Assembly (NCBI GenBank): GCA_028707125.1
Contig: JAQTUX010000001.1
Coordinates: forward strand, 13,639-77,638
Length of the DNA stretch: 64,000 nucleotides
Reading direction: 5' to 3'
From: Candidatus Omnitrophota bacterium
GTDB taxonomy: Bacteria > Omnitrophota > Gorgyraeia > Gygaellales > JAQTUX01
The notes under the pieces were generated by a model, which worked only from the letters and a program-made list of their open reading frames with translations, had not been told where the DNA came from and searched no databases. Shown piece after piece: positions 1-52,212 of the stretch. Position 1 is the stretch's first letter; every line of letters starts with the position of its first letter. The position numbers and the translations under genes were made by a program.

Positions 1-509
1 TTTAACTCGAACACAAGAGAGCGGGAAAGCAGCGCTGAAACGATGGAGAAAAACGGGTTATGCACCGTTGCCCCGATAAGTATTATATTACCGTCTTCCA
101 CATCCGGCATAAGCACATCCTGCTGGAGCTTGTTAAAACGGTGTATCTCGTCAATGAAAAGCACGGTCCTTTTAGGGGCGCTGCCAAGGCGCGCCTTGGC
201 GCGGGCGATTATCTTCCTGAGGTCATCAACCCCTGAGGTAGTGGCGTTAATTGAAACAAAGTCGCTTTTTGTGGCATTGCTTATGCAGTAGGCGAGGCTG
301 GTCTTGCCTACCCCGGGAGGGCCGTAAAGTATGATAGACACCAGCCGATCCGCCTCTATGGCGCGGCGCAGCAGCTTGTCCTTGCCCAGTATGTGGGACT
401 GCCCCGCGAATTCATCCAGCGACCTCGGCCGCATGCGCACTGAAAGGGGCTGCTTCCTGGATATCTTGGGGGCCTGTTCGAGGAATAAGTCGAATGTGTC
501 GGAAGGCAT
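1..509 (-). CDS. rarA: Replication-associated recombination protein RarA/MgsA (AAA+ ATPase), N-terminal ~170 aa; 3' end runs off window start
   Basis: Reverse-strand translation from ATG at 509..507 (RBS GGGGAT upstream) gives MPSDTFDLFLEQAPKISRKQPLSVRMRPRSLDEFAGQSHILGKDKLLRRAIEADRLVSIILYGPPGVGKTSLAYCISNATKSDF...LFIDEIHRFNKLQQDVLMPDVEDGNIILIGATV. This is the RarA N-terminal region with Walker A GPPGVGKT and Walker B FIDEIHRF. It is not in the ORF track because it has no stop inside the window. Confidence 0.8.
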   Translation of the reverse strand, partial: MPSDTFDLFLEQAPKISRKQPLSVRMRPRSLDEFAGQSHILGKDKLLRRAIEADRLVSIILYGPPGVGKTSLAYCISNATKSDFVSINATTSGVDDLRKIIARAKARLGSAPKRTVLFIDEIHRFNKLQQDVLMPDVEDGNIILIGATVHNPFFSIVSALLSRSLVFEL

Positions 510-885
510 GATGTTTATCCCCGTCTCGTAAGATGTGCCAAAATTTTCTTCGATAATTTTGGCACACTCGGCGGGATTAATTCGCACAGCGGCTTACGTC
601 ACTATAGTTCCGTAAGCCGCGTGCTCATTAAAAATCCCCGCACTGTGCCGTCGGGATGGAAGCGTTGAACCTGATCGTTTCAGGTGGGCGCTCTCTCAAC
701 AAACCCTCGGGCCTGCTGAAGTCTAAGCACCCTTTATGTTGGTGTTGGCTCAACTATTTTCCGCATCCCGGCGAACACGGCAGGGATTTATTTACTCTCC
801 TTTAATGTATCGCCATAGTAAGTATACCACATTCTAAGCAGAAATTCAATGCCCACGCCTATTTTACCGTCCCGCGGCCGAGCGG

Positions 886-3045
886 TCAAGAGAATAAATC
901 GCCTCCCGTCTTCGCGGCCATTGGCAGGTTTATTGTGAACAGGGTGCCCTGGCCGTATTCGCTTGAAACCCCTATCCGTCCCTTATGGGCGGCTATTATC
1001 TTCTGTATCGCGAATAACCCCAGGCCGCTGCCTTTCTGCGTGGTCGCCTTGGTGGTATAAAAAGGCAAAAAGATGTGTTTCTTCCTCTCTTCGTCCATCC
1101 CTATGCCGTTATCTTGTATCTGGATCGTTATATATTGATCCGACTTGAACATCCTTATGATTATCTTCCCTTTGTAATCGTTAAAACCCTTCAATTCATT
1201 CCTGGCTATGGCGCCCTGCTTTACCTTAAGCGCGTCCATCGCGTTATCTATAAGATTGAAGAGCGCGTCCTGAAATAAGGCGGGGTCGCCTTCGATCCGA
1301 GGAAGGCCGTTTTCTATATGCTTCTCTATGGTCTCAACTGTTACGACGGCCCTGATCCTGGCCATCTCAACGGCGCGTTCGATCGCCTCCCTCGGATCGA
1401 ATTCCCCCGCCTGCTTCAACTGCCGCGGCTGGGAGAAATCCAGGAAGTCGTTGATGATCTTTCCGCCGTGTTTGGCGTTATCCTGAATGCGGTTCAGGGC
1501 ATACGATATGTCTTCAAATATCTTCTTTAATTCGCTTTTGGTAGACCTTTCAAAGTTGGTGAGCTTTATCGTGTCTATCGTATCCGATGTCGCCAGCATT
1601 ATGGCGTGAAAGCGGTTATTGATCTGATGGCTCATCCCGCTGGCCATAACGCCCATTGAACGCATACGCTCGGCGGCGAACAACTGCGCCTGGCTCCTCT
1701 GCGATTCTTCTATAAACTCGGTATTCTCAATTGCCAAAGCCGTCTGATTGGCAAGCATGCCGAAAACCGTAATATCGTCCTGCGTGTAGATGGCCCCCGA
1801 TGCCTTGGGCCCCAACACAAGAAAACCAAGAGATTTGTTCTTTACGAAAGAAGGGACAATAAGCCCGCACCTGATGTTGAATTTACCGTCCATGTCTCTG
1901 TCTATCTCCTCGGCAAACAGGGGCCGGCGCCTGACCTGAAGGTATTTGATCAAAGGCGCCTCAAGCGGCAGTTCCCGCGGGAAATCGGGGAAAAACCCTT
2001 TGACCGTATAGGGGTATTTCTGAATAAACCGCCCTTCCTCTTCCTCTGCCAGGTATATGCAGGCAAAGTCCACCTTTACCGCCCTGGCAACCTTGTAAAC
2101 AATTACTTTAAGCAGGCGCTCTAAATCCTTTATCAGGGTCATCGTGGCGGACAGCCGCCTGAGAACTTCCTGATAGCGGTGCTGTTCTCTAAAGATAACT
2201 CCTTCCGCGTGGCGGCGAAAGCAAGTATAAACGAAGGGGCCGAGGGTGGCAAGAAACAACGTTACCCAGGCCGCCTGTTTCCATAAACCGTATCTATAAC
2301 CCAGCAAAAAAGGGATGCCAAGGACTAAAATATAGACAAACAGGAATATGCCGGCACGGGTAACAGCAATCCTGATATCCATAAGTTGATGGCGGAATAT
2401 AGCGTAAGACGTTATTATAATATAAATACTGGCTAAAATGTTTCCATAAGGCAATATTGGGATATCATACCAAAGCGGATAATTAGTCGCGCCGCCGCCC
2501 CATCCAATGGCGGTTGCCAATAAGAGATATTTTAGTTGATTCCGTTTAAACCCGGTGGCTGTCTTATAGGATTTTACTATTAGAGCTACGCCGTATAAAA
2601 CAATCGATATCCAGATGGCGAAAAATGGATGAAATAATATGCCGGCGTTCGGCCAAAATCGGAAAACAGTTTTTTCTTCCACGCCGGGGATAAAATACGG
2701 AGAAAAACATGCCGCCAGAGAAACAACGGCAAACATATAAGCAAGCTTGATAACCCTCCTTTTCTCGAGGGAAATCCCTATCAGCTCCAATATATAATGC
2801 AAATAAAATACAGGAATAAATAGTGCCCCTGCCATTAAACCGCGGCAATACATAAGCGCCCTTAATTCATTGTCGGCAATTTGCCAGGCAAAATAGAAAT
2901 AACTCCAGACGCTTATGCTGAAGCAAAATAAAGCGTAGGCGATCCTCAGGGTATCTTTTAGCGTTTTTATGCGGCTCAAAATAAAAAGCCCCAGAACAGT
3001 GCTGGTTATGCCGTTGATCAATCCGCTTAAAGCGAAGAAACTCAT
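886..3045 (-). CDS. Sensor histidine kinase with N-terminal 7TM (7TMR-DISM-like) region, GAF domain, HisKA (H-box MSHQINNRFHAI) and HATPase_c
   Basis: 719-aa ORF with ~7 hydrophobic helices in the first 300 aa. It has a GAF-like segment (FACIYLAEEEEGRF...LGFLVLGPKASGAIYTQDDITVFGMLANQTALAIEN). The H-box is SHQINN, the N box NLIDNAMDA and the G boxes DNGIGM/GSGLGL. Confidence 0.85.
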   Translation of the reverse strand: MSFFALSGLINGITSTVLGLFILSRIKTLKDTLRIAYALFCFSISVWSYFYFAWQIADNELRALMYCRGLMAGALFIPVFYLHYILELIGISLEKRRVIKLAYMFAVVSLAACFSPYFIPGVEEKTVFRFWPNAGILFHPFFAIWISIVLYGVALIVKSYKTATGFKRNQLKYLLLATAIGWGGGATNYPLWYDIPILPYGNILASIYIIITSYAIFRHQLMDIRIAVTRAGIFLFVYILVLGIPFLLGYRYGLWKQAAWVTLFLATLGPFVYTCFRRHAEGVIFREQHRYQEVLRRLSATMTLIKDLERLLKVIVYKVARAVKVDFACIYLAEEEEGRFIQKYPYTVKGFFPDFPRELPLEAPLIKYLQVRRRPLFAEEIDRDMDGKFNIRCGLIVPSFVKNKSLGFLVLGPKASGAIYTQDDITVFGMLANQTALAIENTEFIEESQRSQAQLFAAERMRSMGVMASGMSHQINNRFHAIMLATSDTIDTIKLTNFERSTKSELKKIFEDISYALNRIQDNAKHGGKIINDFLDFSQPRQLKQAGEFDPREAIERAVEMARIRAVVTVETIEKHIENGLPRIEGDPALFQDALFNLIDNAMDALKVKQGAIARNELKGFNDYKGKIIIRMFKSDQYITIQIQDNGIGMDEERKKHIFLPFYTTKATTQKGSGLGLFAIQKIIAAHKGRIGVSSEYGQGTLFTINLPMAAKTGGDLFS

Positions 3046-3051
3046 ATCAAA

Positions 3052-4068
3052 TTATTCATTTTTATTCAATGCGATTATGTATTGCATTATCCCCTGTTGT
3101 TCATACCGGATATCAAGATCGCTTTCTTCAAATCCCGCGCTAATGAATATCCTCTTGAATTCCTCCTCGTCGCGATAAACAAGATCCCAATCTCCTCCCC
3201 ATTCCATAAAATGCACGGATGGATTGCTGTATTTATCCCTCACATTCGCGATAACCATATTCCCTTTGGGTAAAAGAAACCTCTTGAGGCCCCGGACTAC
3301 ATATACAGCGGTCCTTTCGCTAAAGTAATCAAAAAGCCCCGCGGAATAAATAAGGTCGTATTTCCCGCGAACATCTTTATCTTTCCTGGCGGTTATCCTT
3401 AAGGCATTCTCCCTGAGAAAATTAACATTGGTAAATCCGCTTAAGGCATCCCTCGCGAAATGTATGGCATTGATATCATTGTCATAGCAATCGAATATCG
3501 CTTTCTTGCACAATCCCTCATTTGAAAACAGGATCTCTCTCAATTCACGGCACGGCCCGGAGGCAAGATCCATAATCCGCAGCTTACAATCCTGCCGTCT
3601 TTTAATAAAATCGATGATCAGCCGCTTAAAATCCTCCTTTCGGTTTCTTACCGCTACCGATATGGCCGACATTTGAAAATAGTTATCAAATAGGCGATCA
3701 AATCCGGTTGTGGCGGGATTATTCTCATAGATATCTTCTATGATCTTGAAATCTCCGGTATAGCCAAAAGGTTTCCTGATGCTCCAATCGCAATAAACCC
3801 CTCTTGCGAATATCTGCCTGAATCTCTTAATAAACAACCGCTTAAGCTTGTAAACTTTATCTTCATTTCCCGCGGCCAGATTGGATCTTTCAAAATTCAT
3901 GATATCCCGGAAAACCTTGTTGATCTCCGAGTTGAACTCGCTCTGAAACCTGCCCCATTCATTGGGGCGCAGGGATAGATACGACTCGATCTCCCGCGCC
4001 CTCTTTTTATAGAGCTTAACGCTTGCCCTGAACGGCATCTCTATTTCCGATCTCAAAACAAGGCTCAT
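3052..4068 (-). CDS. Class I SAM-dependent methyltransferase-like protein with ~170-aa N-terminal domain of unknown function
   Basis: 338-aa ORF. Motif I-like IMDLASGPCRELRE is followed by an acidic DCYDND and by LIYSAGLFDYF, typical of Rossmann-fold methyltransferases. The start codon overlaps the corrected response-regulator stop (ATGA), and the ORF ends 6 nt before the histidine kinase. Confidence 0.5.
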   Translation of the reverse strand: MSLVLRSEIEMPFRASVKLYKKRAREIESYLSLRPNEWGRFQSEFNSEINKVFRDIMNFERSNLAAGNEDKVYKLKRLFIKRFRQIFARGVYCDWSIRKPFGYTGDFKIIEDIYENNPATTGFDRLFDNYFQMSAISVAVRNRKEDFKRLIIDFIKRRQDCKLRIMDLASGPCRELREILFSNEGLCKKAIFDCYDNDINAIHFARDALSGFTNVNFLRENALRITARKDKDVRGKYDLIYSAGLFDYFSERTAVYVVRGLKRFLLPKGNMVIANVRDKYSNPSVHFMEWGGDWDLVYRDEEEFKRIFISAGFEESDLDIRYEQQGIMQYIIALNKNE

Positions 4069-4449
4069 TTCTCTAACCCTAACCCCAGGTTAACGGCGTC
4101 AAAAAAACTATCCAGGTCAAACGGCTTATGCAGGAAAGCGATACAACCCAGTTTTCCCGCTTCGCCCTCTGTCTTTTTATCCGTGAAACCCGTGATAAAA
4201 ATAACCGGGGGGGATATTCTTTCCCCGCCCCTTCAACGTATCCCTGATCTGGCTGACCGTATCAACGCCGCTCTGCCCCGGCATACGGATATCGGAAATG
4301 ATCAGGTCAAAATCGCTTTCTTCGGCAAGAATGAGGGCGTCGTCGTACCTCTTAGCGATCAGGACCTCCAGGCCGCTTTTCTCAAGCAATTTACAAAACG
4401 TCTTCGTGATCAGTTCCTCGTCATCGATCACCAGGATTTTCTTTCGCAT
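4065..4449 (-). CDS. Single-domain response regulator (CheY-like receiver), interrupted by a +1 frameshift in a G7/C7 homopolymer (4207-4213)
   Basis: The N-terminal 90 aa (MRKKILVIDDEELITKTFCKLLEKSGLEVLIAKRYDDALILAEESDFDLIISDIRMPGQSGVDTVSQIRD) is a classic receiver. Removing one G from the 7-G run restores ...KNIPPVIFITGFTDKKTEGEAGKLGCIAFLHKPFDLDSFFDAVNLGLGLEK*, the canonical receiver C-terminus. Its TGA overlaps the ATG of the next gene. The span 4065..4449 is 385 nt, which is 3n+1 and consistent with a 1-nt insertion. Confidence 0.7.
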
Positions 4450-4538
4450 CCGCGGGCCCTCCTTACCCTGTTCCTGCGGATATTATATCACCTTACTGGT
4501 AAGGTGTAAATAATATTTGTTTATGTTAGAGTAATAAT

Positions 4539-4754
4539 ATGGAAAGAGACATCAAGGCGAGTTATTCTCAGCGGCTGCGGTCGTTAAGAAAGCAATACGG
4601 CTACACCCAGCAGGAGCTTGCCGAGAAGGCAGACATAGAATATAAGCACATCCAGCGCCTGGAAAGCAAGAGGCCCTGCGACGTAAAACTCTCCACGCTG
4701 GAAAAGATAGCCAGGGCATTCAATATCTCCCTTCCTGAATTACTGGATTTTTAA
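4539..4754 (+). CDS. XRE-family helix-turn-helix transcriptional regulator
   Basis: 71 aa containing YTQQELAEKADIEYKHIQRLESKRPCDVKLSTLEKIARAFNISLPELL, a Cro/C1-type HTH. Confidence 0.8.
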   Translation: MERDIKASYSQRLRSLRKQYGYTQQELAEKADIEYKHIQRLESKRPCDVKLSTLEKIARAFNISLPELLDF

Positions 4755-4768
4755 CCGCCCCCGCCCCT

Positions 4769-5455
4769 TCAGAGCATTCCCTTATCCGCGAAACTGAAAT
4801 AAGCGTCCTTACCTATTATTATGTGGTCAAGCACCATGATCTGAAGCGCGGCGCCTGATTGCGCCAACCCCGACGTAAACTTCTTGTCTTCGCTGCTGGG
4901 ATTGACATGGCCTGAGGGGTGGTTATGCACGCAGATGATCGCCGCCGCGTAATGCTGCAGCGCCTTATGAAAAACCTCCCTTATCAGGGGCCGCACGTTA
5001 TTCACGGTGCCTTCCGCTATCTCCACAATGTCGGTTATACGGCTCTGCGAATTAAGGAATACGGCCTTGACCACCTCTTTTTTCAGGCTTCCCATGCGCG
5101 GCGTTAAAATATCCGCTATGTCTTTTGAAGACCTGATCTTAAGGCTGCTTCTGTCCGCCCCCTGCTCCTTAAACCTTCTGCCTATTTCGATCGCGGCTTT
5201 GATCCGCGCGATTTTGGCGGCACCCAGCCCTTTAAATTCCTTCCAGCGGGAAAAATCAACGTCGGCCATATCGCGGAATACGCCGAATTGCTTCAGGATC
5301 GCTCTTGCCAGGTCTATCGCGCTCTTCCCCTTCACCCCTGAGCCCAAAATGACGGCCAAAAGCTCTGTGTCGGTCAGTTTGTGTTCGCCGTAGCGCAAAA
5401 GCCGTTCCCGCGGCCGGTCGTCCTCAGGCCACGAGTTAATCCCCTGTTCAGCCAT
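4769..5455 (-). CDS. radC: DNA repair protein RadC (JAB/MPN domain, UPF0758)
   Basis: 228 aa. The N-terminal HhH region (ELLAVILGSGVKGKSAIDLARAIL) and the JAMM motif HNHPSGHVNPSSED are diagnostic of RadC. Confidence 0.85.
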   Translation of the reverse strand: MAEQGINSWPEDDRPRERLLRYGEHKLTDTELLAVILGSGVKGKSAIDLARAILKQFGVFRDMADVDFSRWKEFKGLGAAKIARIKAAIEIGRRFKEQGADRSSLKIRSSKDIADILTPRMGSLKKEVVKAVFLNSQSRITDIVEIAEGTVNNVRPLIREVFHKALQHYAAAIICVHNHPSGHVNPSSEDKKFTSGLAQSGAALQIMVLDHIIIGKDAYFSFADKGML

Positions 5456-5460
5456 TTTTA

Positions 5461-5510
5461 CCCTCTACTATATAGACGTAAAAAGCGGCGTTTTACTTGC
5501 AAAAAAGTTT
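5461..5510 (-). promoter_or_regulatory. Conserved promoter/leader cassette copy A (TTTTTTGCAAG-N-TTTACGTCTATATAGTAGAGGG) immediately upstream of radC
   Basis: The reverse complement reads AAACTTTTTTGCAAGTAAAACGCCGCTTTTTACGTCTATATAGTAGAGGGTAAAAATG. It is near-identical to the copies at 11058-11108 and ~51533-51585 and ends in the RBS of the downstream gene. Confidence 0.5.
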
Positions 5511-6918
5511 AAGAAAAATAGGCGTGGGGAATCCCTGATAGACAGGAGTTAAATATGAGGAGGGCTGATATCAGCAGCTCGCATGTCGCGGCTACGATGC
5601 CACAGAGGGCGGGGATCATAAAACTGAAGGCAAGAAGCAGGAATCCCGAGGCAACAACGATACTCAAATAAGGCACGACAACCATATTGGCAAAAATGGC
5701 TATGGGCGAGACAATGCCGAAATAATGCCAAACCGGCAGGGCAGTGCCCAGCCAGGCAGCCAGGGATACGCAAAACGCGAGTATTGGAAACTTCACTATC
5801 CTCTTCTTCAATAACACCTCCGGAAATAGCCGGCGTATCCTGGGAGACAGCCAGACAATGGAAAGCACGCTTATAAACGAGAGTTGAAACCCTATGTCAA
5901 ATAACTGGTTAGGATTTATAAGCAGTATGATAAACGCGGCGATGGCAAGGGAATTATAAATATTCACCTCCCGCTCCAGCACATAACCCAAAAGCATAAC
6001 CTCCGCCATCAGCGTTGCCCTGACAACCGAAACCCTGGCACCGGTAAGCAGGCAATAAAATGCCAGCAGGGACATCGTGATAATGAAACGCGGCTTTCTG
6101 GATATCCTAAGGGACTTAAGCAGCGATAAAAAGATGAAAGCGGCTATCCCTGTATGCAGGCCCGATACCGCGAGTATGTGGACTGTGCCGGTCCTCATAA
6201 ACAACTCATTGACCTGCCGCGGCGGCGCCCTTCTTTCGCCAAGCAGCATCGCGCTGTACAGATTGGCTGAGACCGGAGAAAGATAATCGTTCAATATAGC
6301 GATCAGCCTGTTTTTCAAAGATACGGCTGCCTGCTTTATAATGCTGCCCCGGTTATGTGAAATCACTTTGATCCCCGATCCCGTATTAACAGTCGCTATT
6401 GAATATATGCCATTCCGCCTCAGATACGCCCGGTAATCAAACCTTCCGTCACCGAAGTTATACGGCCAGTCGATCTTGCCTGTTATTGAGACCTCGTCGC
6501 CAAAACGCGCGTTCATATCGGCGGGCATCCTTACCAGAGCCTTGCCTGCGACAGCAAATTCCCTGCTATTGAATATAATCCTTTTAGCATCCAACACAAA
6601 GGCCTGCCTTTTATTGCCGATCTCGCGCGGCTCTTCCGCGACTATGCCTACTATATCTATGGCTTCGGTAACGTAATTAAAATTGCTGACGTGATTATGG
6701 GGCAGGACTTTTGTGTTGGCGTAAAGCAGCGCGCCCAGGAAGAAAAACAGCGCCTGCGCCGGAACGGCTGAATATGCCCGGCGCCTGAAGAACACGAAAT
6801 TAGCGGCTAAGGCGGCGGCTGTCAATATTAAGAACGCGGATAGAGGAAGGGGAAAAAAATGCGCGGCAAGAATACCGGCGATCAAAGAAACGGTTATGCC
6901 GATCAAGGGATACTTCAT
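5509..6918 (-). CDS. comEC: ComEC/Rec2-family competence (DNA internalization) membrane protein, no beta-lactamase domain
   Basis: 469-aa polytopic membrane protein with N-terminal DUF4131-like and ComEC-like regions. It overlaps comEA by 4 nt. Confidence 0.7.
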   Translation of the reverse strand: MKYPLIGITVSLIAGILAAHFFPLPLSAFLILTAAALAANFVFFRRRAYSAVPAQALFFFLGALLYANTKVLPHNHVSNFNYVTEAIDIVGIVAEEPREIGNKRQAFVLDAKRIIFNSREFAVAGKALVRMPADMNARFGDEVSITGKIDWPYNFGDGRFDYRAYLRRNGIYSIATVNTGSGIKVISHNRGSIIKQAAVSLKNRLIAILNDYLSPVSANLYSAMLLGERRAPPRQVNELFMRTGTVHILAVSGLHTGIAAFIFLSLLKSLRISRKPRFIITMSLLAFYCLLTGARVSVVRATLMAEVMLLGYVLEREVNIYNSLAIAAFIILLINPNQLFDIGFQLSFISVLSIVWLSPRIRRLFPEVLLKKRIVKFPILAFCVSLAAWLGTALPVWHYFGIVSPIAIFANMVVVPYLSIVVASGFLLLAFSFMIPALCGIVAATCELLISALLIFNSCLSGIPHAYFS

Positions 6919-7271
6919 TCCATTACGATAAGATCCTTGAACCTCGCGTACTTACCGGGCCCTACGCCTTTTACCTTTCTGATGTCCTCCTCAAAGAAAA
7001 ACGGCCCCTGCGATTTACGGTATTCGATTATCCTTTCTGCCAACGCCGGCCCTATGCCGGGCAAGGATATCAGCTGCTCCCTGGTGGCAATATTTATGTT
7101 TATCTTTTCCCGCGCGCGCTGTGTCCGCGACTCTGGCGGCTTTGAGAAGATCACGCCGCGGGGGATTTCAGGAGAGAGGCCCTTTACAAAAATACTTATC
7201 AGCAGCCCCGTCAAGATCACGGCGCCGATAAATAATAAAATTCCCCGTTCCTGGCGGGTAAGATTCAGCAT
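6915..7271 (-). CDS. comEA: ComEA-like helix-hairpin-helix DNA-binding competence protein
   Basis: 118 aa with one N-terminal TM helix and a tandem HhH (NINIATREQLISLPGIGPALAERIIEYR...GPFFFEEDIRKVKGVGPGKYARFKDLI). Confidence 0.85.
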   Translation of the reverse strand: MLNLTRQERGILLFIGAVILTGLLISIFVKGLSPEIPRGVIFSKPPESRTQRAREKININIATREQLISLPGIGPALAERIIEYRKSQGPFFFEEDIRKVKGVGPGKYARFKDLIVME

Positions 7272-7326
7272 ATCTGGTAATCTTCAAATATTTATGTTAT
7301 TATAACATACGCAACGGAGGAGAAAA

Positions 7327-7731
7327 ATGAAAATAAGGCGCGGTTTTACGCTAATCGAAGTTTTAATAGTTGTAATGGTCATTTCTATCGTGGCGGCGCT
7401 GGCCATACCCAATATACTAAGGTCAAAATTGACCGCCAATGAATCGGCCGCCCAGACAACGCTGAAGACCATCGCGGTTGCCTGCGAGAACTACGCGACG
7501 GCAAACAACGGCCTTTACCCCGCATCTGAAACACAACTCCTTGAAGCGGAGCCGCCATATCTGAACGGCTCATACGACGGGCAGACGATCCAGGGGTATA
7601 AATACGCCTTTAATCTCACGAACGCGAGTTATCTTGTCATTGCCTCGCCTGCCAGCTGCGGGGCGAACGGCTCAAAGACCTATACGATCGTAACCGGCGG
7701 GATCCTTACGGGGGCGGACTGCGGCGCCTAA
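7327..7731 (+). CDS. Prepilin-type N-terminal cleavage/methylation domain protein (type IV pilin / competence pseudopilin-like)
   Basis: MKIRRGFTLIEVLIVVMVISIVAALAIP is a class III signal (G^FTLIE) followed by a hydrophobic helix. The gene is divergent from comEA. Confidence 0.75.
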   Translation: MKIRRGFTLIEVLIVVMVISIVAALAIPNILRSKLTANESAAQTTLKTIAVACENYATANNGLYPASETQLLEAEPPYLNGSYDGQTIQGYKYAFNLTNASYLVIASPASCGANGSKTYTIVTGGILTGADCGA

Positions 7732-10175
7732 ACCACTATATTGACTAATTTTCCGGGGATAATTATAATCTTCTTGAGGGGGGAATCTTTGACCCACTGC
7801 CTTACCTTCTCATCAGATAAAACGGCTTTCCTTAAATCCTCTTCGCTGATATCCGGGCTCACTTCAACTTTAGAACGCACCTTGCCGTTCACCTGCACTA
7901 TTATCGCCGCGATATCCGCCTTAAGCATGCCTTCCTCATAGGAAGGCCAGCCCGACTTAAAAACACTGCCTTTCTCGCCTAGCATCTGCCACATCTCCTC
8001 TGCCAGATGCGGGATAAACGGCGCCAGCAGACATACCAGAGCCCTTACAGCGGCTGATTCTGTCTTGCTCTTTATCTCCACCTTATCGCCCACGCTTTTA
8101 TATATCTCATTGACCAGTTCCATGCAGGCGGCGATACAGGTGTTGAATTTAAAACCGCCCTCCATATCATCGGTTATCTTCTTTATTACGCTGTGCGTCT
8201 TGCGGGCCAGATCCTTGTTATCCGGTCCTGCCTTGACGCGCGCCTGGCTTGAGGCCTCGACTAATCTCCAGAGCCTGCTCACAAATCTGCTGGAACCTTC
8301 TATGCCCCTGTCATCCCACTCAAGCTCTGCCTCAGGAGGCGCGGCAAACAAAATGAATAGCCTTAAGGTATCTGCCCCGTATTTCCCGATCACTCCGTCG
8401 GGGTCAACAACGTTACCGCGCGACTTGGACATGACCTCGCCTTCTTTCAAGACCATGCCCTGCGTAAGCAAGTTAACGAACGGTTCATTAAAATCTATCA
8501 GCCCCAGGTCCTTGAAAAATTTAGTGAAAAAACGGGAATAAAGAAGATGCAGTATGGCATGCTCTATGCCTCCGATGTACTGGTCAACCGGCATCCAGTG
8601 TTTGGCCTCGCCCTTGTTGAATATCTCTTTTTTGTCTTTTGGCGAGCAAAACCTCAGGAAATACCAGGAAGAATCAAAGAATGTCGCCATTGTGTCGGTC
8701 TCGCGGCGGGCAGCCGATCCGCATTTGGGGCATTTTACCTCAACAAAACTCTTCACCTTTCCTAACGGCGAACCGCCCTCGCCGCTGATCTTGACCTTCC
8801 TGGGCAGCTCAACCGGCAGGTCCTTCTCGGGAACCGGTACAATGCCGCATTTTGAGCAGTATATAATCGGGATGGGCGTGCCCCAGTAGCGCTGGCGGGA
8901 GATCAGCCAGTCGCGCAGGCGCCAGTTTACCACGCGCCTGCCAATGCCTTTTTGTTCCATCCATTCCGCGATCTTTACCTTTGCCTCGTTGTTGGGCAGT
9001 CCGTCAAACTGCGCTGAATTTACCTGAACACCGTCGGCCTCGTATGCCTCAGAAAGATCTTCTGCTCTGATATTCTGATCCTCTGATCCTCTGATAACTA
9101 TCCGCATGGGCAGATTGTGTTCTTTAGCAAATAGAAAATCCCTCTGATCATGCGTAGGCACCGCCATGATCGCGCCTGTGCCGTATTCCATAAGCACATA
9201 ATCGGCGATCCATATAGGTATCTCCTCGTTGTTCACCGGATTTATGGCGTAGGCGCCTGTGAATACGCCTTCCTTTTTTACGTCCTGCGAGGCGCGCGCG
9301 ACCTTCGTCTCTTTGGCTACCTTACTAATAAAGTCAAGATCCTGCTTCTCCTGCTGCCTGCCTTTTATGAGCTGTTTTACCAATGGATGCTCCGGAGCAA
9401 GCACGATGTAGGTCGCGCCGAAAATAGTATCCACGCGCGTGGTAAATACCGGGATCGTCTGGCCGCTGTCTTTTGCCTTGAAATATATCTCAACCCCCTC
9501 TGAACGGCCGAGCCAGTTTTTCTGCATCGCCACAACCCGCTCCGGCCATCTGCTCAACTGGTTTAAATCCTCTAATAATCTCTCCTGATATTCGGTGATC
9601 TTCAGATACCACTGCTCAAGCTCCTTCTGCGCCACTTCATTCTTGCAGCGCCAGCATCCTCCGTCTATCACCTCTTCGTTGGCAAGGGTTGTCTCGCAGG
9701 ACGGGCACCAGTTTACGCTTGAGGCCTTCCTGTAGGCAAGCCCGCGCTCAAACATCTTCAGAAATATCCATTGGTTCCAACGGTAATATTCCGGCAGGCA
9801 GGTGGAGATCTCCCTGCCCCAATCGTAGGAGAAGCCCATGCGCTTAAGCTCCGCCTTCATCCACTCAATACATTTAAGCGTCCAGGCCTCCGCGTCGGTA
9901 TTGTTTTTTATGGCGGCGTTCTCCGCGGGCTGGCCAAAGGCGTCAAAGCCGACAGGATGCAGGACGTTAAAGCCGCGCATCATCTTGTAGCGGGCGATCA
10001 CGTCGGCAATGGTGTAGTTGCGCACGTGGCCCATATGGATCTTCCCCGACGGATAAGGAAACATCTCCAGGCAGTAATATTTCTTCCTTTTACTATCCGG
10101 CCTTACGGAATATGTCTTATCCCTCTGCCAGCGCCTCTGCCATTTTTCTTCGATCTTTTTAAAATCGTATTTCAT
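7728..10175 (-). CDS. leuS: Leucyl-tRNA synthetase
   Basis: 815 aa with the HIGH motif HMGHVRNYTIADVIARY, the KMSKS motif (VMSKSRGNVVDP), and editing and zinc regions typical of LeuS. Confidence 0.95.
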   Translation of the reverse strand: MKYDFKKIEEKWQRRWQRDKTYSVRPDSKRKKYYCLEMFPYPSGKIHMGHVRNYTIADVIARYKMMRGFNVLHPVGFDAFGQPAENAAIKNNTDAEAWTLKCIEWMKAELKRMGFSYDWGREISTCLPEYYRWNQWIFLKMFERGLAYRKASSVNWCPSCETTLANEEVIDGGCWRCKNEVAQKELEQWYLKITEYQERLLEDLNQLSRWPERVVAMQKNWLGRSEGVEIYFKAKDSGQTIPVFTTRVDTIFGATYIVLAPEHPLVKQLIKGRQQEKQDLDFISKVAKETKVARASQDVKKEGVFTGAYAINPVNNEEIPIWIADYVLMEYGTGAIMAVPTHDQRDFLFAKEHNLPMRIVIRGSEDQNIRAEDLSEAYEADGVQVNSAQFDGLPNNEAKVKIAEWMEQKGIGRRVVNWRLRDWLISRQRYWGTPIPIIYCSKCGIVPVPEKDLPVELPRKVKISGEGGSPLGKVKSFVEVKCPKCGSAARRETDTMATFFDSSWYFLRFCSPKDKKEIFNKGEAKHWMPVDQYIGGIEHAILHLLYSRFFTKFFKDLGLIDFNEPFVNLLTQGMVLKEGEVMSKSRGNVVDPDGVIGKYGADTLRLFILFAAPPEAELEWDDRGIEGSSRFVSRLWRLVEASSQARVKAGPDNKDLARKTHSVIKKITDDMEGGFKFNTCIAACMELVNEIYKSVGDKVEIKSKTESAAVRALVCLLAPFIPHLAEEMWQMLGEKGSVFKSGWPSYEEGMLKADIAAIIVQVNGKVRSKVEVSPDISEEDLRKAVLSDEKVRQWVKDSPLKKIIIIPGKLVNIVV

Positions 10176-11020
10176 AGCGAAACCAGCCTGCGCACCGCCT
10201 CTACGTTGCGCCTGTCTTCCCCTTCTTTTCTTTTTGGAGTTTCCAATATAAACGGCACATCTCTCAACTTGGGATGATTGACGATCCTGGCAAAGCCCTC
10301 CAGGCCTATCCTGCCCTTACCTATGTGCTCATGCCTGTCGTAATGAGAGCTCAGCTTATCCTTCGTATCGTTAAGGTGTATCAATTTTATCTTGCGCGGG
10401 CCTATCAGGGAATCAATTTCTGAAAGCATCATTTCCAACCCCTCTTCGCTGGCGATATCGTATCCGGCGCAATAAGCGTGACAGGTATCAACGCATAAGC
10501 CGACGCGGCTTTTCTGCGCCACAGATGATATAACCTCTGCCTGATGTATGAACTTATACCCCAGCCAGCTGCCTGAACCCGACGTGTTCTCGAGCAGTAT
10601 GGTTACGCCCGTATCCTCGGTGGACTCAAGTATCCTGTTTATGCCCCTGATAAGCCGCTTCAGGCCCCGCCTCTCCCCTGACTTCTTATGGCTGCCCATA
10701 TGCGTAACAAGATACTGCGCGCCCAGGGCCTCTGCTTCGCGAATATCCGCTATATATGTCTTTATCGACTCGTAAAAAAGCTTATTAAAAGGTGAGGCCA
10801 AATTCGCCAGATACGGTATATGCACAAAAACCGGCCTGATCCGGCTCTGCTTGACCCTCTTCCTGAACTCCTCTATATCCTCTTTAGCTATGCTGCCGCG
10901 GCGCCATTCGCGGGGCGAGCGGGAAAATATCTGCATCGTGTTGATTTTAAGCGCGTTGGCCCTGTCAACCGCCTCGTAAATCTTCCCCGCGATAGAAACG
11001 TGAACCCCCAGCCGCAGCAT
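10172..11020 (-). CDS. nfo: Endonuclease IV (AP endonuclease family 2)
   Basis: 282 aa. MLRLGVHVSIAGKIYEAVDRANALKINTMQIFSRSPREW and HIPYLANLASP are characteristic Nfo TIM-barrel motifs. Confidence 0.9.
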   Translation of the reverse strand: MLRLGVHVSIAGKIYEAVDRANALKINTMQIFSRSPREWRRGSIAKEDIEEFRKRVKQSRIRPVFVHIPYLANLASPFNKLFYESIKTYIADIREAEALGAQYLVTHMGSHKKSGERRGLKRLIRGINRILESTEDTGVTILLENTSGSGSWLGYKFIHQAEVISSVAQKSRVGLCVDTCHAYCAGYDIASEEGLEMMLSEIDSLIGPRKIKLIHLNDTKDKLSSHYDRHEHIGKGRIGLEGFARIVNHPKLRDVPFILETPKRKEGEDRRNVEAVRRLVSL

Positions 11021-11057
11021 TATGGAACAATTATATCACGCCGTCACAAGAAATCTT

Positions 11058-11108
11058 AAACTTTTTTGCAAGTAAAACGCTGATTCTTACGTCTTATATA
11101 GTAGAGGG
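11058..11108 (+). promoter_or_regulatory. Conserved promoter/leader cassette copy B upstream of the ORF6N gene
   Basis: AAACTTTTTTGCAAGTAAAACGCTGATTCTTACGTCTTATATAGTAGAGGGGGTGAAAAAATG, followed by the ATG at 11118. Confidence 0.5.
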
Positions 11109-11117
11109 GGTGAAAAA

Positions 11118-11684
11118 ATGGTTGATTATGCTACAGAGGCTGTTTCTGGAATGATCCTGGAAGCAAGAGGCCAAAAGGTAATGCTGGACAAGGATTTAGC
11201 GGTGCTTTATGGTGTAAAGACAAAAAGGCTGAATGAACAAGTCAGAAGAAACAAAGACAGATTTCCCGAAGATTTCATGTTTCAGCTTACAAAAGAAGAG
11301 GCCCTGAACTTGAAATCGCATTTTGCGACTTCAAGTTTAAGGTCGCAATTTGCGACCTTAAACAGTATTAAACCGGAGGACTCTAAAAGAGGCAAACATA
11401 TCAAGTACCTACCACTAGCCTTTACAGAACAGGGTATTGCTATGCTCTCAAGCGTGCTCAATAGCAAACGAGCAATACAGGTTAATATATTGATTATGAG
11501 GGCATTTGTTCAGTTGAGACGCGTGCTTCTAACTCATAAGGAATTGGCGGTAAAGATTGAGGCATTGGAAAGGAAATACGCGGAACATGATAAAACCATC
11601 AAATCAATATTTGAAGCAATTAAACAATTATTGGAACAACCTGGGGAGAAAGAGAAAAGAAGGATTGGTTTTCATGATACTTAA
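11118..11684 (+). CDS. ORF6N-domain protein (phage antirepressor-like DNA-binding family)
   Basis: 188 aa. The N-terminal segment ARGQKVMLDKDLAVLYGVKTKRLNEQVRRNKDRFPEDFMFQLTKEE matches the ORF6N/KilA-N-like fold family. The C-terminus is coiled-coil. Confidence 0.7.
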   Translation: MVDYATEAVSGMILEARGQKVMLDKDLAVLYGVKTKRLNEQVRRNKDRFPEDFMFQLTKEEALNLKSHFATSSLRSQFATLNSIKPEDSKRGKHIKYLPLAFTEQGIAMLSSVLNSKRAIQVNILIMRAFVQLRRVLLTHKELAVKIEALERKYAEHDKTIKSIFEAIKQLLEQPGEKEKRRIGFHDT

Positions 11685-11812
11685 CGAACCCGTTGCCTTG
11701 TGCGGATGAAAGGCACTACGCTCGCTATTTTGCTTGTTGGATAGGTCCTTCGTCGCTCGCTTACGCTCGTTCCTCAGGACCATTTTTCCCGATGGGTAAA
11801 CTAGAGGAAAAA

Positions 11813-11885
11813 TGGAGCTGGAGGGATTTGAACCCTCGACCCCTTGCATGCCATGCAAGTGCTCTCCCAGCTGAGCTACAGCCCC
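11813..11885 (-). tRNA. tRNA-Ala (anticodon GGC)
   Basis: Minus strand reads GGGGCTGTAGCTCAGCTGGGAGAGCACTTGCATGGCATGCAAGGGGTCGAGGGTTCAAATCCCTCCAGCTCCA and folds as a cloverleaf. The anticodon loop is AUGGCAU, and the G3:U70 Ala identity pair is present. CCA is not encoded. Confidence 0.85.
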
Positions 11886-11958
11886 AAAAATTCTACCTGT
11901 ATAAAATGCCGGAATTTTTGGATTAAATAAAGCGGAACTAAGATTTAAGAGCTAAGAA

Positions 11959-12381
11959 CTAAGATAAATTCAGATACTTTACCAGCTTGTCCCAGGTGCG
12001 GCTGCCCATTACTCCGTCGGCATTCAGGCCGTTTGCCTCCTGGAATTTCTTTATCGCCTCTTTGGTGGCCGTGCCTATCTGGCCGTCTATCGGGCCTGTA
12101 TAGAAGTTGGCGTTCTTTAATGCCTGCTGGATTTCCGCTGCCGTGGGCATTTTTATAACTACCTCCTTCTCTATTTTGGGCACGGCAGTCAATTCTTTCT
12201 CTATGGCCCCTATCTTGTCTTTTAAGGCGATATTCTCTGCTTCCATCTCTTTTATCCGCGCCTGCAGCGAGGCCATTTGCTCCGATTGCGCGGCAAGCTG
12301 CTCCTCTTTTTTATTATCCAAAGTAACACAACCAGACATCAATAAAGCCAAAATAAACAGGAAAAAAGCGCTCTTTTTCAT
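11959..12381 (-). CDS. Lipoprotein with coiled-coil and C-terminal peptidoglycan-binding (PG_binding_1) domain
   Basis: The likely start is MKKSAFFLFILALLMSGC (lipobox LMSGC). The long ORF-track start at 12540 overlaps tRNA-Leu, so that N-terminal extension was rejected. The C-terminus YTGPIDGQIGTATKEAIKKFQEANGLNADGVMGSRTWDKL is a PG-binding repeat. Confidence 0.65.
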   Translation of the reverse strand: MKKSAFFLFILALLMSGCVTLDNKKEEQLAAQSEQMASLQARIKEMEAENIALKDKIGAIEKELTAVPKIEKEVVIKMPTAAEIQQALKNANFYTGPIDGQIGTATKEAIKKFQEANGLNADGVMGSRTWDKLVKYLNLS

Positions 12382-12482
12382 CGATCTCCTTTCTTTGAAA
12401 AGCTTATTATATCTATTTTTTACCTGTTTGACAAACGGTATTTTCAATGCTATATTCCTATTTATCTCGTATATTTTATGTT

Positions 12483-12565
12483 GCCGAAGTGGCGGAATGG
12501 CAGACGCGGTAGCCTCAAAAGCTATTGAGGGCAACCTCATGAGAGTTCAAGTCTCTCCTTCGGCA
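12483..12565 (+). tRNA. tRNA-Leu (anticodon CAA), class II with long variable arm
   Basis: GCCGAAGTGGCGGAATGGCAGACGCGGTAGCCTCAAAAGCTATTGAGGGCAACCTCATGAGAGTTCAAGTCTCTCCTTCGGCA has a 7-bp acceptor stem, anticodon loop CUCAAAA, variable stem-loop GAGG-GCAA-CCTC and T-arm GAGAG-TTCAAGT-CTCTC. It closely resembles E. coli tRNA-Leu. Confidence 0.85.
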
Positions 12566-12578
12566 TTAACAAAATAAC

Positions 12579-13271
12579 ATGGCAGAAAATAAAACAACCT
12601 ACCAATGGAGCCCAGAATTAGCCTATATTGTAGGCCTGATAACTACTGACGGTTCCCTCTCTTGTGATAGGCGCCATATTACTATGGTATCGCGTGACTT
12701 ACAACTGCTTAAAACTTTTCGTAAGTGCCTCAACCTAAGAAACCGGATAAGCAAACGCAAACAATACAAAAACCGCCCAAACCCTAATTATCAAGTCACC
12801 TTCGGTAATGTATCTTTTTATCACTGGCTACAGAAAATTGGATTAATGCCTAATAAAACCTATAATCTCAAGGAACTTTTAGTGCCAAAAAATTACCTTG
12901 CAGATTATCTTCGCGGGTTTATAGATGGTGATGGTTCAATTTTTACTTATGCCGATCGATATATGTGCTATAAAGGAAAACACTATACATACAAACGCCT
13001 TTATGTCGCATTTAATTCCCTAAGTAAAATACATCTATCTTGGATAAAATCCAACTTAGAAGTACTGTTGGGATTGAAGGGCGGATTCGCTAAGTGGAGC
13101 AATAAACATAGCACCGCGCCTCTCTGGACTCTGCGGTATGCTAAAAATGATTCGCTTAAATTGCTTCCCTGGATTTATTATAAAGAGGATTTACCTTGCC
13201 TTAAACGCAAAAGAAAAATTGCCGACAGATTCTTAAGAAACTTGCGAGTTAATTCCGATTTACAAAATTAA
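12579..13271 (+). CDS. LAGLIDADG homing endonuclease (two-motif, single-chain)
   Basis: 230 aa with two LAGLIDADG motifs, LAYIVGLITTDGSL and LRGFIDGDGSI, about 100 aa apart. It starts 14 nt after the tRNA-Leu 3' end. Confidence 0.85.
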   Translation: MAENKTTYQWSPELAYIVGLITTDGSLSCDRRHITMVSRDLQLLKTFRKCLNLRNRISKRKQYKNRPNPNYQVTFGNVSFYHWLQKIGLMPNKTYNLKELLVPKNYLADYLRGFIDGDGSIFTYADRYMCYKGKHYTYKRLYVAFNSLSKIHLSWIKSNLEVLLGLKGGFAKWSNKHSTAPLWTLRYAKNDSLKLLPWIYYKEDLPCLKRKRKIADRFLRNLRVNSDLQN

Positions 13272-13320
13272 TCCTGATTCTCTCCCTCGGCACTAAATTG
13301 GGTAAGGCAGGCTGATAAAT

Positions 13321-13662
13321 TCATTTACCCTGGCTGTGTCTGTATTTTATTACTCTTACTTTCTCCAACGTAACCAGCCCCTCCGTTACCGCTTCATCAA
13401 GGAAAGGGATAAGTTTATTAAGGTTTTCTTCGGTATCTACCAGTTCAACGACTATCGGCAGATCTTCAGAGAGGCGTAATAGCTTTGCCGTATGCATGCG
13501 GCTGTCCGCGCCAAAACCCATAATTCCACGGATCACCGTAGCGCCTGCCAGATTAAGTTCCCTCGCCTTAAGGACGATCTGCTCATAGAGCGCTTTGCCC
13601 TTGTATTGATCCGTCTCTCCGACAAAGATACGCAATAACATCCCTTCTTCAGGCAGTTTCAT
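13321..13662 (-). CDS. DUF190/UPF0166 protein (CrcB-associated, PII-like fold)
   Basis: 113 aa (LLRIFVGETDQYKGKALYEQIVLKARELNLAGATVIRGIMGFG...) matching the DUF190 family that is routinely co-encoded with crcB. Confidence 0.75.
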   Translation of the reverse strand: MKLPEEGMLLRIFVGETDQYKGKALYEQIVLKARELNLAGATVIRGIMGFGADSRMHTAKLLRLSEDLPIVVELVDTEENLNKLIPFLDEAVTEGLVTLEKVRVIKYRHSQGK

Positions 13663-14058
13663 TTACGCCACCCCCTTCAGATTAGCCATCAGGAACCTGG
13701 CCGCCGCAAAACCGGCAAAGACCAAAGCTATGCCGATAATATTGGATGCCAGGATATTGATAACGGCGATCTTGAATTCGCCATCCCGGATCAGATTAAA
13801 ATTTTCCAAACTGAACGTTGAAAAAGTGGTGAACCCTCCGAGGATGCCGATAAATATGAACATTCTTACGGTCGGCGCGACTGCCAACCGCTCAAAAATA
13901 CCCCATAAGAATCCGATCACCAGAGAACCCGCGAGATTTACTACGAGCGTGCTTACGGGAAAGACTCCGTTTGAAAATCTGTAGTCAATGCCGGAAGCGA
14001 TATACCTGAGAAGCGTCCCCGCGGCTCCGCCTAAAGCGATAAAAAATAACCTCAACAT
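13663..14058 (-). CDS. crcB: Fluoride ion channel CrcB/FluC
   Basis: 131 aa with 4 TM helices. MLRLFFIALGGAAGTLLRY and GFTTFSTFSLE are CrcB signatures. Confidence 0.9.
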   Translation of the reverse strand: MLRLFFIALGGAAGTLLRYIASGIDYRFSNGVFPVSTLVVNLAGSLVIGFLWGIFERLAVAPTVRMFIFIGILGGFTTFSTFSLENFNLIRDGEFKIAVINILASNIIGIALVFAGFAAARFLMANLKGVA

Positions 14059-14077
14059 AAGTTGACCCCTCCTTCTT

Positions 14078-14136
14078 TATCCGGTAGGAGTTATCAGCCC
14101 TGTTGAGGCGGTTAAGAGGCAAACCCCATTGCCTGC
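14078..14136 (-). promoter_or_regulatory. Fluoride riboswitch (crcB RNA motif) in 5' leader of crcB
   Basis: Minus strand reads GGCAAUGGGGUUUGCCUCUUAACCGCCUCAACAGGGCUGAUAACUCCUACCGG. It aligns with the crcB-motif consensus and with the Thermotoga petrophila aptamer (GGCGAUGAGGCCCGCCCAAACUGCCCUGAAAAGGGCUGAUGGCCUCUAC). The P1 helix GGCAAUGGGGUUUGCC, AACCGCC, and GGCUGAU...CUCCUAC are all present. An RBS AAGGAGGGG and the crcB ATG follow. Confidence 0.8.
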
Positions 14137-14208
14137 TTTTGAATGCCTTGGAAAAAATCAGATATCGCTCATTATTATATTATTTCTTTTCCGGATCGCA
14201 ATACAAAT

Positions 14209-15297
14209 TTAACAACCTGTGGCAAACCACTCCCTTGTTCTAAGGCAGACCCTGACCAGCAACAACATGACAGGCACTTCTATAAGCACGCCGACTACGG
14301 TTGCCAGGGACGCCCCGGACGACAAGCCGAATAATACCGTAGACGTGGCTATAGCCACTTCAAAATGATTGCTGGCGCCGATAAGCGCGGACGGGGCAGC
14401 GTCCCGATATCCCAACTTCAGCCATTTCGCCAGCAGATATGTGATCGCGAATATCAGGCAGGTCTGTATGAGGAGCGGCACGGCGATAAGAAAAATAACC
14501 TGCGGCTGGCTGATAATCAAATCACCCTTAAATGAGAATAAAAGTATCAGCGTAACCAGCAGCGCTGCTATGGATACCTCTGTCAAATAATGTATAAATC
14601 TTTCCTCAAACCATTTAAATCCCTTTTTGGCAATAATCCATTTGCGCGAATAATACCCTAAAAGCAGGGGCAGGCCCACATAAATTACTACCGATAACAC
14701 TATTGTCTGCCAGGGTATGGGCATCTTATTCACCCCTAAAAGCCAGCCGCCCAGCGGGGCATAGAGGAAAAGCATGGTCAGCGAATTGATCGCCACCATA
14801 ACCAGCGTGTGGCCGCCGTTGCCTCTGGATAGATGGCCCCAAATAAGCACCATCGCGGTGCAGGGGGCGATGCCCAGCAGTATGCAGCCGGAGATATACG
14901 AACGGTAAAGTTCAACTCGCGAGCCGTCTTTGATAATTTCCAACCCGGGAAGCCAGCCCTTGAAGATCCCGCCTAAAAACAGCGTGGCGATGGCAAGCAT
15001 GGTAAACGGCTTGATGCACCAATTGACAAACAATGTCAATATAACCGGCTTCGGCGCCTTGCCTGCCTTGACAACCTCGGCAAAATCTATCTTTACCATG
15101 ATCGGGTACATCATAAAAAACAGGCATACCGCTATAGGGATGGATACCTGGTAAACAGAAAAACTGTCCAGCCGCACTGCCAAAGCCGGGAACAACCTTC
15201 CCAGCAGGATGCCCGCGCCGATACATCCGGCAACCCACAAGGTAAGATATTTCTCAAAAAAACTTAAACGGCGCTCTTCATGGATGATGTGCTCCAT
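14209..15297 (-). CDS. acr3: Arsenite efflux transporter, ACR3 family
   Basis: 362 aa with 10 TM helices. [29 protein letters not shown]...[13 protein letters not shown]...[12 protein letters not shown] closely matches Acr3/ArsB (BART superfamily) signatures. Confidence 0.85.
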
Positions 15298-15306
15298 AAG
15301 ACCTCC

Positions 15307-16658: not shown

Positions 16659-16671
16659 CTTATCCTCACTT

Positions 16672-17472: not shown

Positions 17473-17481
17473 CTCCCCTCG

Positions 17482-18588: not shown

Positions 18589-18609
18589 TGCCTGACTCCT
18601 TTCCTGAAA

Positions 18610-52201: not shown

Positions 52202-52212
52202 AGGAGGGTGGT

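Follow-up and report, generated by a model that had tools for sequence, protein, structure and literature searches.

Three near-identical copies of a short element that precedes genes in the window (the whole 64,000-nt stretch of Candidatus Omnitrophota DNA analysed here) are most readily understood as promoters recognised by an ECF-type (group 4) sigma factor specific to the Omnitrophota, an explanation that we regard as probable. An alternative-sigma promoter was one of three readings offered by the original prediction, and it is favoured by the geometry of the element, its discreteness, its orientation, its recurrence, its linkage to genes for a sigma factor and an anti-sigma factor, and its co-variation with the sigma subfamily.

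When the sequence was read directly, all three ~50-nt copies were found where the original prediction had placed them, and on the strands it had given. The window holds exactly three such elements, each composed of a T-rich tract, TTGCAAG, 14 variable nucleotides and TTACGTCT(T)ATATAGTAG(A)GG, and in each of them a gene starts 12-18 nt beyond TATATAG. The copies are laid out as follows.

5510-5461, minus strand: copy 1, with a T-tract, TTGCAAG (5502-5496), a 14-nt spacer, TTACGTCT (5481-5474; CGTC at 5478-5475) and ATATAGTAGAGGG (5473-5461), the last comprising ATATAG (5473-5468) and TAGAGGG (5467-5461) with the ribosome-binding site within it; the radC ATG is at 5455.
11058-11108, plus strand: copy 2, with TTGCAAG (11066-11072), spacer (11073-11086), TTACGTCT (11087-11094; CGTC at 11090-11093) and TATATAG (11095-11101) followed by TAGAGGGGG; TTACGTCTTATATAGTAGA spans 11087-11105 and the ATG is at 11118.
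51533-51585, plus strand: copy 3, with TTGCAAG (51541-51547), spacer (51548-51561), TTACGTCT (51562-51569; CGTC at 51565-51568) and TATATAG (51570-51576) followed by TAGAAGGAGG; TTACGTCTTATATAGTAGA spans 51562-51580 and the spoVG ATG is at 51595.

The variable stretch, first put at ~16 nt, measures exactly 14 nt between TTGCAAG and TTACGTCT in all three copies. Copy 1 has one T fewer after CGTCT than copies 2 and 3. Copies 1 and 2 form an inverted pair with 93% identity across 41 nt, a stretch that takes in the spacer.

A chance origin of the three copies is excluded. The 19-mer TTACGTCTTATATAGTAGA occurs twice in the window (0.00 expected from 100 shuffles), and the pattern TTGCAA[CGT]-N17-CGTCT matches three times, compared with no match in 30 shuffles. 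With a 50-column position matrix built from related sites, copies 1, 2 and 3 scored 61.0, 56.0 and 61.1 bits, respectively (copy 1 with a version omitting one T), and the next-best score in the rest of the 64-kb window was below 8 bits, with a shuffle maximum of 6.6 and no tail of weaker sites. The TTTTTGCAAG box by itself is not enriched in the window (6 matches, 8.6 expected); the signal is both boxes jointly, not TTTTTGCAAG singly. An Rfam scan of the window at gathering thresholds placed no family at the motif. Elsewhere the same scan returned two tRNAs, a 6S RNA gene (631-789, minus strand; RF00013, 67.3 bits, gathering score 46.4) and a fluoride riboswitch (14078-14142, minus strand; RF01734, 55.4 bits). 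Immediately downstream of the riboswitch are two small ORFs (13663-14058 and 13321-13662), probably genes for crcB-type fluoride channels.

The original prediction had taken TATATA/TATAGT as the second promoter element, at a distance of ~22 nt from TTGCAA, and had judged this spacing unfit for a canonical sigma70 promoter. The figure and the judgement stand (the distance is 22-25 nt, and the 17-nt position is occupied by ACGTCT), but the choice of element does not, since the -10 element is CGTCT. Read in this way, 17 nt past the -35 box, the odd spacing vanishes and the standard ECF layout, AAC-N16/17-CGTC, appears: in three of three copies TTGCAAG is followed by 14 nt, TTA and CGTC. For the experimentally validated SigE targets of Streptomyces coelicolor the notation is nGCAAC-N17-CGTCTT (PMC6767563, Table 1), and the ECF promoters of Bacillus subtilis have AAC at -35, CGT(C/A) at -10 and a T-tract past the -35 element, and keep near their consensus (PMC5758882).

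The -35 box of the window is GCAAG and not the hallmark AAC. The single form seen most often in the metagenome set described below is TTGCAAC, and AAT, AAG, ACG and AAAG variants, which follow the sigma subfamily, are also seen in related loci. At -10, where ECF promoters have CGT(C/A) or GTC, all window copies have CGTC, and some lineages have TGTC or CATC. Within a lineage, conservation extends ~12 nt past CGTC (TTATATAGTAG), farther than known ECF -10 elements require, and this long block may point to a second factor. Between lineages the bases that follow GTCT change (TTTATAG, AATAAG, ATATAG, TTATATATAG), but they remain A/T-rich and end in AG.

Recurrence of the element was followed in three sequence collections. 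A genome collection whose representatives do not include the window genome was scanned with a strict two-box pattern and gave two matches only, one in an Acidobacteriota MAG (L002) and one in a 'Planctomycetia' MAG (L003), where a four-helix-bundle (23S-IVP) gene, with recA and recX after it, lies behind the motif. Metagenomes were scanned with the downstream 18-mer TTACGTCTTATATAGTAG alone, yielding 58 loci in samples such as sediment and groundwater, and the near-invariance of the block after CGTC in these loci is partly a product of the exact-match query. In about 55 of the 58, a TTG[CA]A[ACT]N or TGTAAC box, with an A-tract before it, is separated by the same 14 nt from the downstream block; since the upstream half was left free in the query, the recurrence of the -35 box independently confirms the two-box structure. 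Among unselected extra copies in the flanks of the loci, those that retain CGTC vary around it (CTACGTC, CTCCGTC, TCACGTC, ..CGTCATCTATAG). A same-strand ORF of at least 60 aa with a ribosome-binding site lies within 300 nt of 51 of the 60 unique sites, at a median distance of 46 nt. A scan of viral sequences returned six matches that were set aside as chance-like, five of them being one conserved sequence in related contigs, and one plausible site (L009).

Two of these sites lie outside obvious Omnitrophota contexts. The GC-rich Acidobacteriota contig (L002) has a full motif at 2239-2274, before a 295-aa Rpn-like ORF (2296-3183), and L009 (912-929; identical with L024), a marine viral or TARA contig, has the box in the form TTGTAAC, with unchanged spacing. 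These two sites may be owed to horizontal transfer, to mis-binning, or to a phage that relies on the sigma of its host.

In nine independent Omnitrophota loci (L013, L014, L018/L028, L073, L074, L079, L080, L081 and L082; L076 in part) an ECF sigma gene is followed by the motif and a zf-HC2 anti-sigma gene, and then, where spoVG is present, by a second motif and spoVG(-yraN-comM). Six of the nine were picked by protein homology alone. The arrangements are listed here with the way in which each locus was selected.

L013, L014, L018 and L028, selected by the motif: sigma gene (Sigma70_r2 and r4_2) directly upstream of the motif, zf-HC2, motif, spoVG.
L073, selected by ComM homology: sigma, motif, zf-HC2, motif, spoVG-yraN-IVP-comM-ORF6N.
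L074/75, selected by ComM homology: sigma, motif, anti-sigma, motif, spoVG-yraN-comM.
L076/77, selected by ComM homology: motif before spoVG only.
L079, L080, L081 and L082, selected by sigma homology: a motif variant after the sigma gene, and also before spoVG where spoVG is present.

The linked sigma factors consist of regions 2 and 4 only. They score 66-95 bits with the ECF superfamily model TIGR02937 (cutoff 42.9) and match Pfam Sigma70_r4_2, the Sigma70_r2 match being weak or below threshold in several; they reach no NCBIfam subfamily or equivalog cutoff. All named homologues of the linked sigma are from Omnitrophica/Omnitrophota. The proteins encoded after the sigma gene are 150-192 aa long, and all have an HxxxCxxC motif and a conserved hydrophobic segment; this anti-sigma candidate matches Pfam PF13490 (zf-HC2) and, weakly, RsrA. 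The motif is absent upstream of the sigma gene itself in the linked loci. In the two loci where the promoter of the sigma gene was read by eye it was sigma-70-like (TTGACT...TATCTT in L014 and TTGACA-16-TAAAAT in L079). In most autoregulated ECF systems the target promoter is upstream of the sigma gene.

The form of the promoter was compared with the recognition helix in region 4.2 of the linked sigma, with the following groups as the outcome.

L074, L076, L081 and L082: helix NTVSSI.KR(N/T/S); -35 box TTGCAAG; -10 region (C/G/A)TGTGTCT(A/T)ATA..AG.
L013, L014, L073, L079 and L080: helix GTVSSY.KRA; -35 box TTGCAA(C/T); -10 element (A/G)CGTCT or GCATCT.
L018 and L028: helix NTVSTIIRRS; -35 box TTGAACG; -10 element ACGTC.

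Judged qualitatively from these sequences, the promoter variants appear to track the sigma subfamilies, as co-evolution of sigma and promoter predicts; the groups are clades and are not statistically independent. The window combines TTGCAAG with ACGTCT, and TTGCAAG is the -35 form found with the closest relatives of its ComM, those in L074 (64% identity) and L076 (61%). No homologue of the sigma or the anti-sigma was detected by tblastn in the 64-kb window (best E 0.06). The best candidate for the cognate sigma, P0244, was rejected, since its sample of origin is not the same and its synteny differs. With all three window promoters in a perfect state, the window genome presumably encodes the cognate sigma.

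In the mechanism that we propose, and in which the identity of the sigma, the start site and the inducing signal are the parts that we infer, region 4 of the sigma would bind the -35 box (TTGCAAG here, TTGCAAC/T or TTGAACG in sister lineages) below its A/T-rich upstream tract, and region 2 would bind the -10 element (A)CGTCT 17 nt on. By analogy, TATATAG would be the A/T-rich stretch that melts between the -10 element and the start site, the latter probably a purine in or just past TATAG. The 5' end of the mRNA would then fall almost at the ribosome-binding site (TAGAGGG or TAGAAGGAGG), leaving leaders of ~12-20 nt in the window. As for the circuit, the sigma gene would be expressed from an ordinary sigma-70-like promoter, as in the two loci read, and the motif would drive the gene directly downstream for a membrane-anchored HxxxCxxC anti-sigma, so that the sigma would induce its own inhibitor; a second copy would drive the next unit, spoVG-yraN-comM. 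With a sigma-70-like promoter on the sigma and the motif on the anti-sigma, the circuit looks like a constitutive sigma with negative feedback.

Three other explanations were weighed against the ECF promoter. According to the first of these, which we consider improbable, the conserved block is an operator over a weak promoter, bound by a DNA-binding regulator such as SpoVG itself or by a repressor on the near-palindromic CTATATAG, with TTGCAAG as a second half-site or an UP-like element. This would account for the near-invariance, within a lineage, of the block TATATAGTAG past CGTC, which an ECF -10 element does not require, and for CTATATAG being a perfect palindrome in copy 1; moreover, spoVG is a constant target and encodes a nucleic-acid-binding protein. 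However, neither copies 2 and 3 (CTTATATAG) nor other lineages (TTTATAG, AATAAG) preserve the palindrome, the two boxes bear no symmetry relation to each other, and the invariant core, CGTC/GTC, is placed and spaced like the -10 element of an ECF promoter. The element also always faces a gene at promoter distance, and is linked to, and co-varies with, the sigma/anti-sigma pair. A regulator may nevertheless bind over TATATAG in addition to the sigma.

A mobile or duplicated module, either a promoter cassette or a MITE-like element spreading with small accessory genes such as ORF6N, methylase, IS200-like and LAGLIDADG genes, is less probable still. The likeness of the copies would then reflect recent copying and not selection for recognition by a sigma, as the 93% identity of copies 1 and 2 might suggest, and many of the downstream genes are indeed typical mobile or accessory genes; the motif is also present in the GC-rich Acidobacteriota contig and the marine viral contig. 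Where a genome has two sigma-linked copies, their spacers are almost the same: in L073, L074, L080 and L081 the anti-sigma copy and the spoVG copy differ at 1-3 positions of the 14-nt spacer, and between genomes the spacers of such pairs differ. These similar spacers, like those of window copies 1 and 2, may have arisen when the promoter module was duplicated locally or underwent gene conversion, or may be under a constraint not yet recognised. On the other hand, the elements have neither terminal inverted repeats nor target duplications, and they always point to the downstream gene. In copy 3 and between genomes the likeness is confined to the two boxes and the spacers differ, and core genes (spoVG, radC, anti-sigma, the recA operon) carry the motif in conserved synteny at ~55-65% protein identity. 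No covariation of arms was observed, and a hairpin or cruciform between the C-rich spacer and the G-run after TAG was rejected, the complementarity being 3.74 compared with 3.62 +/- 0.11 for shuffled partners. Local duplication may account for the identity of spacers, but not for the conservation of the boxes throughout the phylum.

A housekeeping (sigma-70/RpoD) promoter in near-consensus form, or a chance similarity, has next to no likelihood: TTGCAA does resemble TTGACA, and TATATA or TATAGT resembles TATAAT, but the spacing described above is wrong for them, canonical TTGACA-17-TATAAT/TATATT promoters occur elsewhere in the window (e.g. at 12428-12456 before tRNA-Leu), no graded tail of weaker motif matches is seen, and the expectation in shuffles is 0 for both the 19-mer and the two-box pattern. 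Had the motif been upstream of most genes it would have been the generic consensus of the lineage; with three sites in 64 kb, and ordinary sigma-70-type promoters in the same window, it is a separate class. At copies 1 and 2, a consensus scan of positions 1-20000 did not report any site of sigma-70 type on the strand that carries the motif.

Several other element types were compared and rejected. A sigma-54 promoter (TGGCAC-N5-TTGCA, with GG at -24 and TTGC(A) at -12) shares TTGCA, but 5-11 nt upstream of TTGCA the window copies have TTAAAC or TTTAAG with no GG. A promoter for a T7-like single-subunit RNA polymerase, a single unbroken block of about 20 nt that ends in TATAG at the start site and lacks an upstream box, which the motif resembles by eye (TACGtCTtAtATAG and TACGACTCACTATAG), was rejected on the 1-nt indel tolerated in copy 1 and on the second box conserved at 14 nt. 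The sequences match neither the Bacteroidetes-type promoter (TTTG / TAnnTTTG) nor the cin-box (TACGAATA).

The putative ECF promoters of the window stand before the following genes.

4769-5455, minus strand: radC, 228 aa, monocistronic, behind copy 1; Pfam RadC (1.3e-38) and UPF0758_N.
11118-11684, plus strand: ORF6N-domain gene, 188 aa, behind copy 2; Pfam ORF6N (1.7e-34).
51595-53745, plus strand: tightly packed spoVG-yraN-comM operon, behind copy 3.
51595-51861, plus strand: spoVG; Pfam SpoVG.
51845-52201, plus strand: yraN/UPF0102; Pfam UPF0102.
52213-53745, plus strand: comM/YifB; Pfam Mg_chelatase/ChlI.

The radC product scores 230.8 bits with the NCBIfam RadC model (cutoff 180). Copy 1 begins right after the comEC stop codon at 5509, comEC ending one base ahead of it, and radC thus appears to have its own promoter despite its position after comEC. 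The ComEC gene (5509-6918, minus strand; 469 aa) encodes DUF4131 and Competence domains and gave no match to a beta-lactamase-like domain. In the operon, a 17-nt overlap is followed by an 11-nt gap, and the order spoVG-yraN-comM behind the motif is also found in L014, L060, L073, L074, L076, L080 and L081. In front of spoVG the window has a divergent DUF212 gene in place of the sigma/anti-sigma pair. The window ComM is 100% identical to an NCBI protein of a 'Candidatus Omnitrophica bacterium' MAG, and all its named close homologues are from Omnitrophica/Omnitrophota. In L069 and L071, Omnitrophota loci with comM and no adjacent spoVG, no motif was found at comM; the motif goes with spoVG, not with comM.

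Two neighbourhoods of these genes contain elements of mobile type. Just past the ORF6N gene, 11812-13271 is a small accessory-gene hotspot around tRNA genes: tRNA-Ala (11812-11886, minus strand), tRNA-Leu (12482-12566, plus strand) with its TTGACA-17-TATATT promoter, and a LAGLIDADG endonuclease ORF (12579-13271) that starts 13 nt past tRNA-Leu. After comM, an IS200/Y1-transposase-like, RAYT-like gene (53866-54354) is surrounded by inverted REP-like repeats (53780-53836 and 54376-54432) built of GAAACAGTTTC palindromes, with a further, 87% identical repeat copy at 39142-39180. This gene is not behind the motif; in other Omnitrophota loci Y1_Tnp genes are.

Among the related loci, the families encoded behind the motif recur as follows.

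ORF6N, the commonest family: 16 sites.
spoVG: 6 sites.
zf-HC2 anti-sigma-like: 6 sites.
HTH protein family: 5 sites.
N6/N4 DNA methylases: 4 sites.
23S-IVP four-helix-bundle: 3 sites.
IS200/Y1-like: several sites.
LAGLIDADG, RhuM-Fic, YhcG/DUF1016, DUF4258 and AAA_14/DUF4143: single cases.

A common expression of radC, the ORF6N gene and spoVG had been suggested at the outset. For spoVG and ORF6N, which are within the commonest downstream families, this is supported by their recurrence behind the motif across dozens of related loci; radC is a target in the window only (a singleton cluster). In the window, radC, the ORF6N gene and the spoVG-yraN-comM operon would form one undescribed regulon, which in other Omnitrophota would also include DNA methylases, 23S-IVP/four-helix-bundle genes (one followed by recA-recX), and IS200-like and LAGLIDADG genes. 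Conserved leaders of ~50-70 nt separate the motif from DNA methylase genes in L012, L027 and L067, where they share ...GGGGAC-TATGG...CCCC-AGACAATACTATGGACG..., and from ORF6N genes in L030, L038, L042 and L044; in the leaders of several ORF6N genes there is a perfect palindrome, GGTCGCAAATTGCGACC or GGTCACAAATTGTGACC. These leaders are possible second-level regulatory sites or RNA structures.

The Omnitrophota are abundant, uncultured and often ultra-small bacteria, and no description of an Omnitrophota promoter or ECF sigma system was found in the literature library searched. The findings point to an ECF group that is undescribed and specific to the phylum, together with the promoter it would target; a sharply defined promoter and a likely sigma/anti-sigma pair also give the phylum a first inferred regulon. 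Its selectivity allows the matrix to be used for direct annotation of target genes in metagenomes, and the sigma and promoter are a candidate orthogonal pair for synthetic biology. The proposed regulon brings together SpoVG, genes for DNA processing (comM, yraN, radC and recA) and numerous ORF6N and mobile-type genes. The tie between SpoVG and comM, yraN, radC and the puzzling ORF6N family suggests one common response. As a speculation, and one that we hold to be rather unlikely, the phylum-wide ECF regulon might be a DNA-transaction or invader-response programme, with a sigma released by stress and the TATATAGTAG block read by a second component, e.g. SpoVG. The sigma would then turn on SpoVG and recombination/transformation helpers (ComM, YraN and RadC; RecA-RecX in one locus) together with a large, fast-turnover set of ORF6N, orphan methylase, RhuM-Fic, YhcG, RAYT and LAGLIDADG genes, and the programme would be a functional analogue of competence sigma factors or of an SOS-like response, run by an ECF sigma.

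By the sequence criteria applied, the element belongs with ECF-type promoters. It shares with the AAC...CGTC class (SigE of S. coelicolor; SigM, SigX, SigV and SigW of B. subtilis) a GCAAC-like -35 end, 16-17 nt to CGTC(T), an A/T tract past the -35 element, a strict consensus, and a small sigma of regions 2 and 4. It differs in having AAG for AAC in the window lineage, a conserved TTG ahead of the box, and, within a lineage, the ~12 additional conserved bases (TTATATAGTAG) past CGTC; unlike these sigma factors, the Omnitrophota sigma falls below every NCBIfam subfamily and equivalog cutoff, and its regulon is without an evident cell-envelope theme. As in the ZAS (zf-HC2)/ECF pairs RsrA-SigR and RsiW-SigW, an anti-sigma candidate with an N-terminal HxxxCxxC follows the sigma gene. 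In contrast to those pairs, the Omnitrophota promoter lies between the sigma and the anti-sigma genes, so that only the anti-sigma would be autoregulated, and the candidate has a double hydrophobic segment (..SFxLSFxxxRYFLQFL..) and a short conserved tail.

The streptococcal competence sigma ComX/SigX drives, from the cin-box, DNA-processing genes that include radC and recA, and comM and radC belong to the competence regulons of Haemophilus and Vibrio. An alternative sigma acting on DNA-processing genes would be a functional analogy only: the cin-box TACGAATA is absent from the Omnitrophota motif, with TACG alone in common, and the observed targets are without pilus or DNA-uptake genes (comEA, comF, comG, dprA), the comEC of the window ending just ahead of copy 1 and not lying behind it. 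Most Omnitrophota targets, moreover, are ORF6N and other accessory genes. Finally, spoVG is under an alternative sigma in Firmicutes as well (SigH in B. subtilis, and SigB for yabJ-spoVG in S. aureus). The likeness lies in the use of an alternative-sigma instead of a housekeeping promoter for spoVG; the systems differ in the class of the sigma (ECF in the Omnitrophota), in promoter sequence and in the genes that share the operon (yraN-comM).
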